Below are positions 1-4,061 of a DNA stretch of 4,061 bases, one piece after another (positions within the stretch are counted from its first letter, which is position 1; every line of letters begins with the position of its first letter). A program made the translations under genes and the position numbers. A model generated the notes under the pieces. The model saw only the letters and a program-made list of their open reading frames with translations, was not told the DNA's origin and ran no database searches. The stretch is from a virus (Duplodnaviria > Heunggongvirae > Uroviricota > Caudoviricetes): the IMG/VR virus record IMGVR_UViG_2703718793_000006. One strand, written 5' to 3'.

Positions 1-26
1 ACACAGTCGTCTGTCGGCGGAGGTAA
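1..26 (+). CDS. 3' end of an upstream ORF (possibly terminase large subunit), partial; the stop could be TAA 24-26 or TAG 28-30 in a different frame
   Basis: Two reading frames run open from the window edge to a stop just before the portal start (TAA 24-26; TAG 28-30, which overlaps the GTG at 30). Only about 9 codons are visible, so the product cannot be identified. The terminase suggestion is based solely on the usual HK97-like gene order (terminase - portal - protease - capsid). Confidence 0.2.
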
Positions 27-29
27 ATA

Positions 30-1047
30 GTGTTCTTTTCGGGATTATTTCAACGAAAAAGTGACGCGCCGGTGACCACGCCAGCAGAACTGGCGGATGC
101 TATCGGGCTGTCATATGACACCTATACCGGAAAGCAGATCAGCAGCCAGCGGGCCATGCGACTGACGGCGGTTTTTTCCTGCGTCAGGGTGCTGGCAGAG
201 TCGGTCGGGATGTTGCCCTGCAATCTGTATCACCTGAACGGCAGCCTGAAACAGAGAGCCACCGGCGAACGTCTGCATAAGCTGATCTCCACGCATCCCA
301 ATGGCTATATGACGCCGCAGGAGTTCTGGGAGCTGGTGGTCACCTGTCTGTGCCTGCGGGGAAACTTTTATGCTTACAAAGTGAAAGCATTTGGCGAAGT
401 GGCTGAACTGCTGCCCGTCGATCCTGGCTGTGTGGTGCCGAAGCTTAACAGTAGCTGGGAGCCGGTCTATCAGGTCACATTCCCGGACGGTNNNNNNNNN
501 NNNNNNNNNNNNNNNNNNNNNNNNNNNNNNNNNNNNNNNNNNNNNNNNNNNNNNNNNNNNNNNNNNNNNNNNNNNNNNNNNNNNNNNNNNNNNNNNNNNN
601 NNNNNNNNNNNNNNNNNNNNNNNNNNNNNNNNNNNNNTGTTCCGGGTGCCGTTGCACATGGTGCAGAACACCGATCGCGCCACCTTCAACAATATCGAAG
701 AGCTGGGGCTCGGATTTATCAACTATTCACTGGTGCCGTATCTGACCCGCATCGAACAGCGGATCAACACCGGACTGGTACGAAAAAGTAAGCAGGGCGT
801 TTATTACGCCAAATTTAACGCCGGGGCGTTACTGCGCGGGGATATGAAGTCCCGTTTTGAAGCCTACGCCACCGGGATTAACTGGGGAATTTACTCTCCC
901 AATGACTGCCGCGACCTGGAAGATATGAATCCGCGTCCCGGTGGTGATGTCTATCTCACACCGATGAACATGACCACGAAACCCTCCGATGGCAGTAAAG
1001 CCGGTAAGCAGAAGGATAACGCCAATGCAGACGAAACAACGTCTTGA
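30..1047 (+). CDS. Phage portal protein, HK97 family (interrupted by an N-run at 492-637; N-terminal part in frame 30.., C-terminal part in frame ending at TGA 1045-1047)
   Basis: GTG start at 30 preceded by GGAGG (19-23) with a 6-nt spacer. The N-terminal translation (…RAMRLTAVFSCVRVLAESVGMLPCNLYHL…LRGNFYAYK…) and the C-terminal translation (…ATFNNIEELGLGFINYSLVPYLTRIEQRI…YYAKFNAGALLRGDMKSRFEAYATGINWGIYSPNDCRDLEDMNPRPGGDVYLTPMNM…) resemble the conserved N- and C-terminal blocks of HK97-type portals (Phage_portal-like). The two halves are in different frames across the N-run, so the true length is not defined by this window. Confidence 0.85.
492..637. other. Run of 146 ambiguous bases (assembly gap or masked sequence) inside the portal gene
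   Basis: Uninterrupted n characters from 492 to 637. The flanking coding frames differ (frame of 30 versus frame of 1047), so the N count does not equal the true missing length in a multiple of 3, unless the gene is disrupted. Confidence 0.95.
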
Positions 1048-1675
1048 TGTACCGCTGAGTCTGAAATCTGTCAGTGACTCCGGTGAGTTTGAAGGGTATG
1101 GCTCCGTCTTTGGTGTAAAGGACAGCCACGATGATGTGGTGATGTCCGGGGCATTTGCTGCTTCCCTGCGGGCGTGGAGTGACAGAAAAGCGTTACCTGC
1201 GCTGCTCTGGCAGCACCGCATGGATGAACCCATCGGTGTTTACACCGAAATGAAGGAAGACGATGTCGGGCTTTACGTCAAAGGACGGTTGCTTATTGAT
1301 GATGATCCCCTCGCAAAACGCGCACATGCACACATGAAGGCCGGTTCGTTAACCGGCCTTTCTATTGGGTACGTCCTGAAAGACTGGGAATACGACCGGA
1401 GCAAAGAAGCCTTTCTGCTGAAAGAAATCGACCTCTGGGAAGTCAGCCTGGTGACGTTCCCGTCTAACGACGAGGCGCGGATCAGTGACGTCAAGAACGC
1501 ACTGGCCCGCGGGGAAATTCCCGAACAGAAAAAAATCGAAAGAGTCCTGCGTGATGTCGGACTCTCCCGTACCCAGGCCAAAGCATTCATGGCCGGGGGC
1601 TATGGCGCACTGTCCCTGCGCGACGCTGAGGATGTGGGCTCTGCACTGAATGCACTAAAAAATCTGAACTTCTAA
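1025..1675 (+). CDS. Prohead maturation protease, HK97 family (peptidase S78-like)
   Basis: ORF in frame 989..1675. I prefer the ATG at 1025 because GAAGGA (1011-1016) lies 8 nt upstream, while the ATG at 989 has no Shine-Dalgarno. The translation has 'GEFEGYGSVFGVKDSHDDVVMSGAF' (candidate His in an Asp-rich context) and 'GSLTGLSIGY' (candidate Ser nucleophile), typical of HK97 gp4-like prohead proteases. The start is nested in the 3' end of the portal gene; stop is TAA 1673-1675. Confidence 0.88.
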   Translation: MQTKQRLDVPLSLKSVSDSGEFEGYGSVFGVKDSHDDVVMSGAFAASLRAWSDRKALPALLWQHRMDEPIGVYTEMKEDDVGLYVKGRLLIDDDPLAKRAHAHMKAGSLTGLSIGYVLKDWEYDRSKEAFLLKEIDLWEVSLVTFPSNDEARISDVKNALARGEIPEQKKIERVLRDVGLSRTQAKAFMAGGYGALSLRDAEDVGSALNALKNLNF

Positions 1676-1689
1676 TCAGGAGAAATACG

Positions 1690-2895
1690 ATGGCGGTTGA
1701 TATTAAAGATGTGGAACAGGTCGCGCAGGAGCTGCAGCAGAAGTTTGACGACTTCAAAGCAAAGAACGACAAGCGCGTTGAGGCGATTGAGCAGGAAAAA
1801 GGCAAACTTGCCGGGCAGGTGGAAACCCTGAACGGAAAACTCAGCGAGCTGGAAAATCTCAAAAGCGACCTTGAAAAAGAGCTGCTTGAGCTGAAACGTC
1901 CGGCAGGTGGTGCGCAAAATAAACTGGCCACCGAGCATAAAGAGGCGTTTGTGGGCTTCCTGCGTAAAGGCCGTGAAGACGGTCTGCGCGATCTGGAGCG
2001 TAAGGCATTGCAGGTGGGCACCGATGAAGACGGTGGCTATGCCGTGCCGGAAGCACTGGATCGCAACATTCTCAACCTGCTGAAAGATGAAGTGGTGATG
2101 CGCCAGGAAGCCACGGTGATCACCGTTGGCGGTTCCGACTACAAAAAACTGGTGAATCTGGGCGGCACGGCTTCCGGATGGGTTGGCGAGACTGACGCGC
2201 GCTCCCAGACTGCCACCTCAAAACTGGGACTGATTGAACCTTTCATGGGGGAAATCTACGGTAACCCGCAGGCCACCCAGAAAATGCTGGATGATGCCTT
2301 TTTCAACGTGGAGGCCTGGATCAACAGCGAGCTGGCAACCGAATTTGCCGAACAGGAAGAAATTGCCTTTACCACCGGCGATGGTACCAAGAAGCCGAAA
2401 GGGTTCCTGGCGTATGAATCCACTGATGAAACCGACAAGGTCCGGGCATTCGGCAAACTTCAGCATATTGTATCCGGCGAAGCGACGGCAGTGACTGCAG
2501 ATGCCATTATCAAACTGATTTACACGCTGCGTAAGGCACACCGCACCGGCGCGAAGTTCATGATGAACAACAACAGCCTGTTTGCCATTCGTCTGCTGAA
2601 AGACACCGAGGGTAACTATCTGTGGCGTCCGGGGCTGGAGCTGGGGCAGCCGTCCTCTCTGGCGGGTTACGGTATCGCTGAAAACGAACAGATGCCGGAT
2701 ATTGCCGCTGATGCGAAAGCCATTGCATTTGGTAACTTCAAACGGGGTTACACCATCGTTGACCGTATCGGTACCCGCATTCTGCGTGACCCGTACACCA
2801 ATAAACCGTTTGTCGGTTTTTATACCACCAAGCGCACTGGCGGCATGCTGGTCGATTCGCAGGCCATCAAACTGCTGAAGATTGCAGCGGCGTAA
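1690..2895 (+). CDS. Major capsid protein, HK97 fold, with N-terminal coiled-coil delta (scaffolding) domain
   Basis: AGGAG at 1678-1682, 7 nt before ATG 1690. 401 aa. The first ~100 residues are strongly charged and heptad-like (…QELQQKFDDFKAKNDKRVEAIEQEKGKLAGQVETLNGKLSELENLKSDLEKELLELKRP…), as expected for a delta domain. They are followed by a region resembling HK97-type capsid proteins (…GTDEDGGYAVPEALD…, …YLWRPGLELGQPSSLAGYGI…, C-terminal …KPFVGFYTTKRTGGMLVDSQAIKLLKIAAA). It follows directly after portal and protease with no separate scaffold gene. Confidence 0.92.
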   Translation: MAVDIKDVEQVAQELQQKFDDFKAKNDKRVEAIEQEKGKLAGQVETLNGKLSELENLKSDLEKELLELKRPAGGAQNKLATEHKEAFVGFLRKGREDGLRDLERKALQVGTDEDGGYAVPEALDRNILNLLKDEVVMRQEATVITVGGSDYKKLVNLGGTASGWVGETDARSQTATSKLGLIEPFMGEIYGNPQATQKMLDDAFFNVEAWINSELATEFAEQEEIAFTTGDGTKKPKGFLAYESTDETDKVRAFGKLQHIVSGEATAVTADAIIKLIYTLRKAHRTGAKFMMNNNSLFAIRLLKDTEGNYLWRPGLELGQPSSLAGYGIAENEQMPDIAADAKAIAFGNFKRGYTIVDRIGTRILRDPYTNKPFVGFYTTKRTGGMLVDSQAIKLLKIAAA

Positions 2896-2902
2896 TCATT
2901 CA

Positions 2903-2924
2903 GGGGGCGCAGAAGTGCGCCCCT
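2903..2924 (+). terminator. GC-rich stem-loop immediately downstream of the capsid gene (putative intrinsic terminator, attenuator or mRNA 3'-stabiliser)
   Basis: Perfect inverted repeat GGGGCGCA (2904-2911) / TGCGCCCC (2916-2923) around a GAAG tetraloop (2912-2915), 8 nt after the capsid stop. The downstream tract GTTCTG is T-poor, so this is not a canonical strong rho-independent terminator. Confidence 0.4.
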
Positions 2925-2945
2925 GTTCTGACAGGTGAAAGAATC

Positions 2946-3134
2946 ATGATCCTGAAACAAGATCTGAAATGGTCACCGGACGGTATACGTGTTGAGATTA
3001 TTCGGGCCGGTGAGTATGAAGATAAAGAATTACCCGAACGGGTACGCGAAATTGCCATTGCAGCTGGGATTGTCTCTGATAAGAGAACACCTGTTGCGCG
3101 GGGGGCTGATAAGTCTAAAAAACAGCATTCATAG
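2946..3134 (+). CDS. Hypothetical small protein (62 aa), unknown function, between the capsid and head-tail connector genes
   Basis: ATG 2946 preceded by AGGTGA (2933-2938) with a 7-nt spacer; stop TAG 3132-3134 lies 11 nt before the next gene. Same strand and packing as the neighbours. I recognise no family from MILKQDLKWSPDGIRVEIIRAGEYEDKELPERVREIAIAAGIVSDKRTPVARGADKSKKQHS. GC is lower than in the head genes. Confidence 0.5.
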   Translation: MILKQDLKWSPDGIRVEIIRAGEYEDKELPERVREIAIAAGIVSDKRTPVARGADKSKKQHS

Positions 3135-3145
3135 AGGTTGCCCAA

Positions 3146-3451
3146 ATGATGCCCACTCTGGAAGAGCTTCGTGTTCAGTGCCGGATTGATGATGACAATG
3201 AACAGGAGAATTCTCTTCTTATGATGTATCTGGCTGCCGCCAGGGAAGAGGCTGAAAAGTTTTTAAACCGGACGCTTTACGATGAAACTGTTTCTGAGCA
3301 GGATGCGACCGGGCTTGTAATAACACCTCTGATAAAACTGCGTCTTATGCAACTGGTTGGCTACTGGTACGAGAACAGGGAAATGCAGGATGCAGTGCCT
3401 GATTTTTTCTATACCGGACTGCGGATGTATCGGTTTCATCCCGGAACATAG
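3146..3451 (+). CDS. Head-tail connector protein, gp6-like (Phage_connect_1-type; also annotated as DNA-packaging/head completion protein)
   Basis: ATG 3146 with AGAGG (3133-3137) upstream. 101 aa. The N-terminus 'MMPTLEELRVQCRIDDDNEQENSLLMMYLAAAREEAEKFLNRTL' matches the characteristic '…LEE(L/V)KxHLRIDxDDED…L…AAREY(I/A)E…' signature of gp6-like connectors. Stop TAG 3449-3451. Confidence 0.85.
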   Translation: MMPTLEELRVQCRIDDDNEQENSLLMMYLAAAREEAEKFLNRTLYDETVSEQDATGLVITPLIKLRLMQLVGYWYENREMQDAVPDFFYTGLRMYRFHPGT

Positions 3452-3459
3452 GAGGATTC

Positions 3460-3798
3460 ATGCAGGCAGGAAGATTACGTGATCGTGTGGTTATTCTGAA
3501 TGCCACCACCGTTCGGTCTCCATCAGGGCACCCTGTGGAAACAATGACGGAGGGGGCAACCATATGGGCAGAAGTTAAGGGGATCAGTGGCAGGGAGAGA
3601 ATATCCGGAGGCGCAGAAACTGCTCAGGCTACAGTGAGGGTCTGGATGAGATTCCGGCGAGATGTGACAGCAACTTCATGTCTGAAAGTGCTGACTGGTG
3701 CATTCAAAGGCGCGATTCTGAGTATAGACGGTCCGCCGATACCGGATGCCCGTGCCACCCGGCTTGAGATACTCTGTTCTCAGAAGGGGAATGTGTGA
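3460..3798 (+). CDS. Head closure / head-tail adaptor protein (Phage_H_T_join-type, SPP1 gp16 / HK97 gp7-like)
   Basis: GGAGG at 3451-3455, then ATG 3460. 112 aa starting 'MQAGRLRDRVVILNATTVRSPSGHPVETMTEGATIWAEVKGISGRE…', which matches the 'M.AG.LRHR(V/I).(I/L)Q…' N-terminus and size typical of this family. Stop TGA 3796-3798 overlaps the next start. Confidence 0.85.
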   Translation: MQAGRLRDRVVILNATTVRSPSGHPVETMTEGATIWAEVKGISGRERISGGAETAQATVRVWMRFRRDVTATSCLKVLTGAFKGAILSIDGPPIPDARATRLEILCSQKGNV

Positions 3799-4061
3799 TG
3801 GATTTCAGTCTTGATTTTTCAGGTCTGGCGGATATTGCACGGGATCTGGAGACGCTCAGCAGGGCAGAAAATAATAAGGTACTGCGCGATGCCACCCGTG
3901 CCGGTGCTGAAGTTATGCGGGATGCAGTTGTTGAACGTGCGCCGGAGCGAACCGGGAAACTGAAGAAAAATGTGGTTGTTCTCACTCAGCGTTCAAAGCG
4001 TCGGGGGGAAATTATCTCGGGTGTCCACATTCGTGGACGGAACCTGCGAACCGGAAACAGT
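3798..4061 (+). CDS. HK97 gp10-family protein (neck / tail-completion component), 3'-truncated by the window end
   Basis: ATG 3798 overlaps the upstream TGA (TGATG); AAGGGGA (3784-3790) is 7 nt upstream. There are 88 open codons to the window edge: MDFSLDFSGLADIARDLETLSRAENNKVLRDATRAGAEVMRDAVVERAPERTGKLKKNVVV…, resembling the N-terminal pattern of the HK97 gp10 family. This ORF is not in the supplied track because it has no in-window stop. Confidence 0.8.
   Translation, partial: MDFSLDFSGLADIARDLETLSRAENNKVLRDATRAGAEVMRDAVVERAPERTGKLKKNVVVLTQRSKRRGEIISGVHIRGRNLRTGNS

Follow-up and report, generated by a model that had tools for sequence, protein, structure and literature searches.

Head-assembly and neck genes of a tailed Escherichia coli prophage, and not of a capsid-forming satellite, in a 4,061-nt viral DNA

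The stretch of DNA analysed here (4,061 nt; hereafter the window) is the head-and-neck block of a tailed E. coli prophage of an ordinary and common kind, and not of a tail-stealing satellite. Gene identities, gene order, the flanks of identical contigs and the identity to sequenced phages make it almost certain that the block belongs to a temperate, lambdoid, long-tailed prophage of the lineage of the Stx2f-converting phage phi467. The block is nearly identical along its whole length to sequenced phage genomes, in which HK97/lambda-type tail genes are contiguous with it, and it is a prophage structural module that is already known and already sequenced. The features of the window are the following.

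1..30, + strand, 3' end of a 60-aa ORF (phrog_502; gene tables and coordinate map of the identical contigs L008 and L011)
30..1047, + strand, portal protein gene (PF04860 on both halves), interrupted by 146 N at 492-637
1025..1675, + strand, prohead (head maturation) serine protease of the S78/HK97 gp4 family, 216 aa (Peptidase_S78, 110 bits; phrog_80)
1690..2895, + strand, major capsid protein with the HK97 fold, 401 aa (PF05065 Phage_capsid, 267 bits, residues 115-398)
2903..2922, + strand, perfect 8-bp GC-rich hairpin, GGGGCGCA-GAAG-TGCGCCCC, in the 50-nt gap 3' of the capsid gene
2946..3134, + strand, 62-aa ORF, function unknown (phrog_1020)
3146..3451, + strand, gp6-like head-tail adaptor (Ad1), 101 aa (PF05135 Phage_connect_1; phrog_40 'head-tail adaptor Ad1')
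3460..3798, + strand, head closure / head-tail joining protein (Hc1), 112 aa (PF05521 Phage_HCP; phrog_25)
3798..4061 (window end), + strand, HK97-gp10-like Neck1/tail-completion protein, 5' 88 codons (PF04883 HK97-gp10_like)

The six named genes all lie on the + strand and each scored above the Pfam gathering threshold, the portal with 84 bits for its N-terminal part (30-491) and 104 bits for its C-terminal part (640-1047); the PHROGs roles (head maturation protease, major head protein, Ad1, Hc1 and Neck1/tail completion) agreed with Pfam. The PF04860 portal, S78 protease and PF05065 capsid genes are adjacent in this order and colinear with HK97 gp3-gp4-gp5. An initial annotation of the window had listed a portal, a prohead protease, a delta-domain capsid protein, a connector, an adaptor and a gp10-like protein. 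All of these are present by Pfam and PHROGs, so that the list was correct for the six genes, but it missed the 62-aa ORF at 2946-3134, for which the Pfam search gave no match. The same annotation had described the module as complete and self-sufficient; the six genes are indeed there, but the portal gene contains the N run, the gp10-like gene is cut at the window end and the terminase genes lie outside the window.

The genes are tightly packed. The 60-aa ORF, placed by PHROGs in the moron/membrane protein class, sits between the terminase large subunit and the portal, and its TAG stop (28-30) shares one base with the GTG start of the portal gene. The protease ORF spans 989-1675 and its start was taken as 1025 after the annotation of the relatives; its 5' end overlaps the 3' end of the portal gene by 23 nt in a different frame, and no ORF was found between the protease and capsid genes in the window. 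The ATG of the gp10-like gene overlaps the Hc1 stop (TGATG). By the full length in the identical contigs, 88 of its 148-149 codons fall in the window, and the complete protein encoded in L011, assigned to phrog_5 'tail completion or Neck1', has 79.7% identity to the HK97 gp10-family protein.

The genomic context was read from identical and near-identical contigs and not from the window's own flanks. All 3,915 readable bases of the window are 100% identical in two contigs, L011 (GCA_014444375.1) and L008 (GCA_039857135.1). In both of them a holin (PF05106), an endolysin (phrog_90), Rz1, an HNH gene, a P27-type TerS, TerL and an intact 413-aa portal were found on the 5' side. On the 3' side the gp10-like gene is followed by tail completion gp17 (tail terminator), a 234-aa Ig-bearing tail tube and the chaperones G/T and, further on, by a 1070-aa tape measure and homologues of lambda M and L; the start of K is reached in L008. 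Lysis and tail genes in the flanks had been named in the initial annotation as the sign of a prophage, and they are there, with the lysis cassette upstream and the tail cluster downstream. In the contigs identical to the window, it is a DNA methyltransferase and not stx2f that separates the Q antiterminator from the lysis genes.

The same arrangement extends to further relatives. Tail genes were present in 10 of 10 contigs encoding the identical capsid protein (nine siphovirus-type, one myovirus-type with a sheath). The prophage of E. coli strain 2D (99.3% identity, ~41.5 kb) begins at an integrase beside tRNA-Ser, ends with the tail fibres and carries lambdoid regulation, replication, Q and lysis genes. 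The early genes of the relatives are cI/cro-like, O/P-like and Q, and their sizes are 38.5-38.6 kb in the phage records and ~41.5 kb in the prophage. Among complete E. coli genomes, 276 contain the window to 80% or more, and a contiguous gp6-to-tail-chaperone segment is present in 251; neck genes without following tail genes were found in none of the matches listed for these genomes. The exact block occurs in ~5% and the head part in ~30% of complete E. coli genomes. The species-representative genome collection contained no exact match to an 81-mer taken from the window's 3' end.

Among the named phages, phi467 (LN997803.1, Stx2f-converting, 38.6 kb), in the literature a lambdoid Stx2f phage (PMC7366253), matches window positions 1-491 with 100% and 638-4061 with 99.0% identity, this latter part, after the N run, containing 33 mismatches and one indel. 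Phage vB_EcoM-606R7 (ON470580.1) shows 98.7% nucleotide identity over 638-4061. Both have the order of the window lineage: HNH-TerS-TerL, portal, protease, capsid, 62-aa ORF, gp6, Hc1, gp10 and a lambda/HK97-type tail.

A first alternative is that this copy is a defective (cryptic) prophage, with a ~224-nt deletion and a frameshift in the portal gene that would leave it without functional heads. The N run at 492-637 is 146 nt long, the contigs matching both sides have 370 nt there, and in the window the two portal halves are consequently in different frames. Decay is also visible in relatives, the integrase of strain 2D being annotated as frameshifted and the tail tube and tape measure genes of another contig, L009, being split. 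However, a run of N says nothing about the underlying sequence, and its length is often arbitrary, set by masking or by a scaffold gap. On either side of the run the window matches, at 100% identity, contigs in which the portal gene is intact (1242 nt, 413 aa, in L008 and L011), and every other gene of the window is intact. The segment under the N run cannot be judged from the window, and a defective portal is considered improbable. The inducibility of this copy is putative.

By analogy with HK97-type biology, an assembly course can be proposed for the intact prophage. The portal would nucleate a prohead of capsid protein, in which a ~107-residue N-terminal delta domain would act as an internal scaffold. 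The co-assembled S78 protease would then cut off the delta domain, at the predicted site L107/Q108, and digest itself. The upstream HNH-TerS-TerL would package a genome of ~38-42 kb into the expanded head, Ad1 (gp6-like) and Hc1 would close the portal, and the gp10-like Neck1, together with the downstream tail terminator, would form the interface to a separately assembled, non-contractile tail of HK97/lambda type.

In the capsid protein, the ~107 N-terminal residues lie outside the PF05065 domain and give a weak coiled-coil match; residues 1-107 are predicted to be the delta (scaffolding) domain, with the mature protein starting near Q108. The cleavage site L107|Q108 is placed solely by alignment with K103|S104 of HK97 and S93 of the EcCIEDL933 capsid. 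At the chainmail columns (HK97 K169, N356 and E363) the window capsid reads S, K and T in a MAFFT alignment of low confidence (21% identity). The covalent chainmail residues define HK97 itself and not the wider family.

The comparison with HK97 (NC_002167) separates the head from the neck and tail. The gene order from the portal to the tape measure is identical to that of the window lineage, and neither has a separate scaffold gene. The initial annotation had called the cassette HK97-like, which holds well from the head-closure gene on, where identities are 51-80%: Hc1 (gp7) 63%, the gp10 family 80%, tail terminator 51%, tail tube 70.5%, G 63% and tape measure 55%. It holds less well for the head genes, which are 26-36% identical in BLAST local alignments (portal 31%, protease 36% to gp4, and capsid 26% over 170 aa by BLASTP or 21% overall), and the window gp6 gave no BLASTP match in HK97. 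The window capsid also has a ~15-residue insertion that is absent from HK97 gp5, an extra 62-aa ORF follows the capsid gene, and the terminase (in the identical contigs) has an HNH partner and a P27-type TerS. The HK97 record places a putative terminator after gp5, in the same position as the hairpin at 2903..2922. This hairpin folds with -18.8 kcal/mol (centroid) to -21.7 kcal/mol (MFE; z = -2.5). It was not called by the consensus terminator scan because it has no T run; the scan of the window gave 5 calls against 4.2 expected, which is chance level. The hairpin is likely a partial terminator or an mRNA-stabilising stem.

A second alternative is that the window derives from a phage of the SfV/SfIV/ST64B type with a contractile (Mu-like) tail in place of a long non-contractile one. 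The portal, protease and capsid genes are 93.6-98% identical at the nucleotide level to those of SfI, SfII, SfIV and ST64B (97-98% for the Sf phages, 93.7% for ST64B; 83% for phiP27). In L003, the one myovirus-type context inspected, the identical capsid protein is followed by sheath, tube and Mu-type baseplate genes, and the closest named phage has 'EcoM' in its name. However, homology to SfI, SfII, SfIV, ST64B and L003 stops at ~window 3018, inside the 62-aa ORF, and that to phiP27 at ~2884, shortly before the capsid gene ends. L003 has the same breakpoint as the Sf phages, then different neck genes and the contractile Mu-like tail. The gp6, Hc1 and gp10 genes of the window match only the lineage with HK97/lambda-type tail genes, and in vB_EcoM-606R7 itself the tape measure H, M, K and I are encoded, whereas a sheath gene is absent. 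A contractile tail is thus very improbable. The block is a known mosaic in which a portal-protease-capsid module of SfV/ST64B/phiP27 type is joined to a neck and tail of HK97 type, and the point at ~3018 inside the 62-aa ORF is the recombination junction between a shared head module and alternative neck/tail modules.

The initial annotation had left undecided whether the block came from a prophage or from a capsid-forming satellite (capsid-forming phage-inducible chromosomal island, cf-PICI), that is, a 10-18 kb element that makes its own small capsids, packages itself and depends on a helper phage for tails only. The prophage side of this alternative is supported, and the satellite side is refuted by the tail genes that follow the gp10-like gene. 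The gene families are those of a cf-PICI (portal, S78 protease, HK97-fold capsid, gp6-like and head closure), the capsid is a clear homologue of the EcCIEDL933 capsid (PDB 9GYI; E 1.5e-54, 37% identity) and the head-closure protein is 50% identical to its cf-PICI counterpart. Against this, all close relatives, the 100%-identical contigs included, have lysis and tail genes on the two sides of the block. A tail cluster 3' of the gp10-like gene had been named as the finding that would speak against a satellite; such a cluster follows that gene in L008 and L011, and likewise in all the further close relatives examined, which comprise 8 contigs, 2 phages and E. coli strain 2D. The published definition of cf-PICIs includes the absence of tail and lysis genes.

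Size, gene order and sequence identity point in the same direction. The related elements, which stand in for the size of the window's own element, are 38-42 kb long with lambdoid early genes and not int-alpA-rep; they do not show the ~10-18 kb length with integrase, alpA-type regulation and primase/replication beside the packaging genes that marks a cf-PICI. The order in the fetched EcCIEDL933-type loci long enough to show it is capsid-protease-portal-head closure-gp6-HNH-TerS-TerL, against portal-protease-capsid-ORF62-gp6-Hc1-gp10 in the window. In pairwise comparison, protein identity to the EcCIEDL933-type set is 29-50% where detectable, against 98.7-100% nucleotide identity to phages and contigs, and the window protease gave no BLASTP match to cf-PICI proteases at 1e-3. 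No homologues of gp10, tail terminator, tail tube or tape measure were found in the fetched EcCIEDL933-type loci. A satellite origin therefore retains next to no probability. The opinion that the window alone could not separate the two cases does not stand either, because the fetched EcCIEDL933-type loci differ in gene order, wherever they are long enough to show it, and none has a gp10-like gene. An EcCIEDL933-type cf-PICI and a prophage can be told apart on a short window by three features, namely the order of the genes, the presence of a gp10-like Neck1 gene and the nucleotide identity to phages already known. There is no need to flag such head-gene cassettes as possible satellites, and beyond correct annotation the importance of the result is small.

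EcCIEDL933 itself shares protein families with the window, as well as HNH-TerS-TerL packaging. Its capsid has a delta domain cleaved at a position that aligns with the site predicted for the window capsid, and both capsids carry a 'connector loop' insertion relative to HK97. The chainmail columns of the cf-PICI and RcGTA capsids likewise hold non-matching residues in the same low-confidence MAFFT alignment. The island, 15.4-15.5 kb long, carries int, alpA and rep; it lacks lysis genes, tail genes and a gp10-like gene. According to the cf-PICI structure paper, its 15-kb genome is enclosed in T=4 capsids, and the connector loop is the main difference from HK97. The relatives of the window are 38-42 kb long. 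The best match among solved structures is the capsid of RcGTA (PDB 6TB9/6TBA; E 8e-75 with 6TB9, ~40% identity over 364 aligned residues). RcGTA is a domesticated head-tail cluster, whereas the window relatives are complete prophages of inducible type with full-length tails. A gene transfer agent of this kind was rejected, the likeness being confined to the capsid protein and the relatives having full lambdoid early, lysis and terminase modules.

EcCIEDL933-type islands use the tails of HK97-like phages such as HK106. Tail-less EcCIEDL933 capsids have been combined in mixing experiments with lysates of HK106 and HK022. Since Hc1, gp10, the tail terminator and the tail tube of the window lineage are of HK97 type (51-80%) and the islands use HK97-like tails, prophages of this lineage could conceivably supply tails in nature to the EcCIEDL933-type cf-PICIs of E. 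coli, and the connector loop could be a trait of the capsid subfamily; we regard this as a rather doubtful suggestion. The loop has equal length in the window capsid, whose phage relatives have genomes of 38-40 kb, which suggests a subfamily trait and not a determinant of the small T=4 shell. The head-closure protein of the window, moreover, has 50% identity to that of the island.

The long ORFs of the window with family assignments all lie on the plus strand. The following genes were found in the ORF survey, with Pfam matches above the curated thresholds except where indicated:
30-491 and 640-1047, plus strand: portal protein (Phage_portal), in two parts
989/1025-1675, plus strand: prohead protease (Caudovirus prohead protease, family S78)
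1690-2895, plus strand: capsid protein (Phage_capsid, domain covering residues 115-398 of 401)
2946-3134, plus strand: 62-aa ORF belonging to a PHROG of unknown function, without a match in the Pfam search of the window products
3146-3451, plus strand: gp6-like connector
3460-3798, plus strand: head completion protein
3798 to the window end, plus strand: HK97-gp10_like protein, the gene being cut there
Since the roles assigned by PHROGs agree with those from Pfam and both coincide with the genes named in the initial annotation, that gene list was correct.

An exact look-up of the capsid protein retrieved ten contigs. Two of them, L008 (GCA_039857135.1) and L011 (GCA_014444375.1), match the window at 100% identity on either side of a run of 146 N at positions 492-637, and four others showed 99.6-99.97% identity in the part that follows this run (638-4061). 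The N run breaks the portal gene, whose halves lie in different frames. Because the same slot is occupied by 370 nt in L008 and L011 (343 nt in phage phi467), where the portal is an intact gene encoding 413 aa, the sequence comparison indicates that the run is most likely a mask or a scaffold gap of arbitrary length rather than a deletion. A real deletion in the source is the less likely alternative.

One question raised by the initial annotation was whether the window comes from a prophage or from a capsid-forming phage-inducible chromosomal island (cf-PICI). The flanks were inferred from the identical contigs L008 and L011, not read from the window's own source. Directly after the gp10-like gene, both contigs carry a gp17-type tail completion/terminator gene (tail terminator in PHROGs), followed by an Ig-domain tail tube protein of 234 aa (major tail protein in PHROGs), lambda G- and T-family chaperones, a 113-aa ORF, a 1070-aa tape measure and homologues of lambda M and L; the start of K is reached in L008. 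Upstream of the window genes, a Q-type antiterminator, a DNA methyltransferase, holin, endolysin and Rz1 were found, and between Rz1 and the portal come HNH, the terminase genes (a P27-type small subunit, then the large one) and a 60-aa ORF. The same layout is annotated in the Stx2f-converting phage phi467 (LN997803.1), in phage vB_EcoM-606R7 (ON470580.1) and in E. coli strain 2D, where the element (~41.5 kb) extends from an integrase beside tRNA-Ser to the tail fibres. A query from gp6 through the tail chaperones was contiguous in 251 complete E. coli genomes, and every neck-gene match in a spread sample runs on into tail genes. By the initial annotation's own criterion, the satellite alternative is refuted, since the tail cluster is located directly downstream of the gp10-like gene in both identical contigs.

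The 113-aa ORF (L008 13459-13800, L011 13704-14045 and, in a further contig, L007 14408-14749) belongs to phrog_2320, of unknown function, and gave no Pfam match. Only those contigs that are closest to the window have it, and it lies in the slot of the HK97 gp15 moron, with tail chaperone T on one side and the tape measure on the other. Another variable slot separates the antiterminator from the lysis genes; in it, phi467 (L002 12850-14085) carries stx2f A/B with tRNA-Thr and tRNA-Gly; in the window-identical contigs (L011 2033-3085) it is occupied by an N6/N4 DNA methyltransferase and contains no toxin genes. In strain 2D (L013 11266-12181 and 13527-14577), frameshifts are annotated both in the integrase next to tRNA-Ser and in a second integrase by tRNA-Asn, beside the yersiniabactin island; hence, this prophage lineage may include immobile copies.

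The cf-PICIs are defined as elements of ~10-18 kb with an integrase, regulation, a replication module and an exclusive packaging module, without lytic genes or a tail module (bioRxiv 10.1101/2022.09.08.507074, 10.1101/2025.02.11.637232). The capsid of one of them, EcCIEDL933 (PDB 9GYI), was the third-best solved-structure match to the window capsid protein, and its sequence was used to retrieve 44 EcCIEDL933-type loci from viral contigs as positive control. The clean reference example (L020 1903-16530) lies between roxA (ycfD) and phoQ. Genes for an integrase, DUF4222, an AAA_25 replication protein and SSB precede its eight packaging genes, which are ordered capsid, protease, portal, head closure, gp6-like, HNH, TerS and TerL. 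Every locus long enough to reveal the order shows this arrangement, and no homologues of gp10, tail terminator, tail tube or tape measure were detectable in these loci. Identities between the window lineage and the EcCIEDL933-type island were 30% for the portal, 37% for the capsid, 36% for gp6, 50% for head closure, 40% for HNH, 29% for TerS and 32% for TerL, and the proteases gave no BLASTP match at 1e-3. Gene order, the presence of a gp10-like gene and these protein identities thus set the window apart from this cf-PICI clade. All five membership features tested spoke against cf-PICI identity, which was rejected. Within two of the island loci (L053 and L055), capsid, head-closure or gp6 genes are 48-74% identical, versus 77-100% for the other packaging genes present, which fits the published adaptor/connector swapping.

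The window block is an already sequenced and very common prophage head-neck module. Matches were present in 1,646 of 5,426 complete E. coli genomes, with at least 80% query coverage in 276. Among phage records, megablast gave 99.0% identity with phi467 and 98.7% with vB_EcoM-606R7 over the whole part after the N run, and SfI, SfII, SfIV, ST64B and phiP27 matched only to about position 3018 or less. The name of vB_EcoM-606R7 carries the myovirus tag 'M'. Its tail genes are of siphovirus type, since the record encodes a lambda-type tape measure H together with M, K and I of the tail tip and lacks a sheath gene.

The gene order of HK97 is colinear with that of the window lineage from portal to tape measure, whereas the similarity is split. 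It is low for the head genes (portal 31%, protease 36%, capsid 26% over 170 aa by BLASTP and 21% overall) and high for those of neck and tail (head closure 63%, gp10-like 80%, tail terminator 51%, tail tube 70.5%, chaperone G 63%, tape measure 55%). The window head genes match the SfV/ST64B/phiP27 group rather than HK97. An apparent exchange junction lies at about position 3018, inside the 62-aa ORF; the sequence up to there is common to SfI, SfII, SfIV, ST64B and the contig L003, which encodes the identical capsid protein and then switches at 3018 to other neck genes and a sheath-bearing Mu-like contractile tail. Several hundred more E. coli genomes share the block from head closure through gp10 to the tail and differ in the gp6-like gene (matches starting at query position 304), which suggests, from alignment boundaries, a second exchange point near 3450, at the gp6/head-closure boundary. 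This pattern is the modular mosaicism well known from temperate enterobacterial phages.

By analogy with HK97-type biology, the portal would seed a prohead of capsid protein with the delta domain as scaffold, which the S78 protease would then strip. The HNH-TerS-TerL machine would pack DNA into the head, the gp6-like adaptor (Ad1) and the head closure protein (Hc1) would seal the portal, and the gp10-like Neck1 protein and tail terminator would attach a pre-assembled non-contractile tail.

In sequence, the window capsid protein resembles the capsids of RcGTA (~40% identity) and of the cf-PICI (34-37%) more than it does HK97 gp5. Its residues ~235-270 align without gaps with the insertion of EcCIEDL933 (9GYI residues 227-248) named 'connector loop' in the cf-PICI structure paper, where it is discussed as a possible size determinant. 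The insertion is present in the RcGTA capsid, whereas HK97 gp5 lacks it, and the loop looks like a trait of the capsid subfamily. The loop alone probably does not dictate a T=4 shell, because the phages with this capsid gene have genomes of 38-40 kb. In the low-confidence, low-identity alignment with HK97, equivalents of the chainmail residues are apparently absent from the aligned positions. The predicted maturation cut, L107|Q108, aligns with HK97 K103|S104 and with S93 of EcCIEDL933, the experimentally determined start of the mature capsid in the cf-PICI paper.

Positions 2903-2922, in the gap that follows the capsid gene, contain a GC-rich hairpin with a perfect 8-bp stem and a GAAG loop. 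Its folding energy is -19 to -22 kcal/mol (z = -2.5), it lacks a T tract, and at the same position, after gp5, a putative terminator is annotated in the HK97 record.
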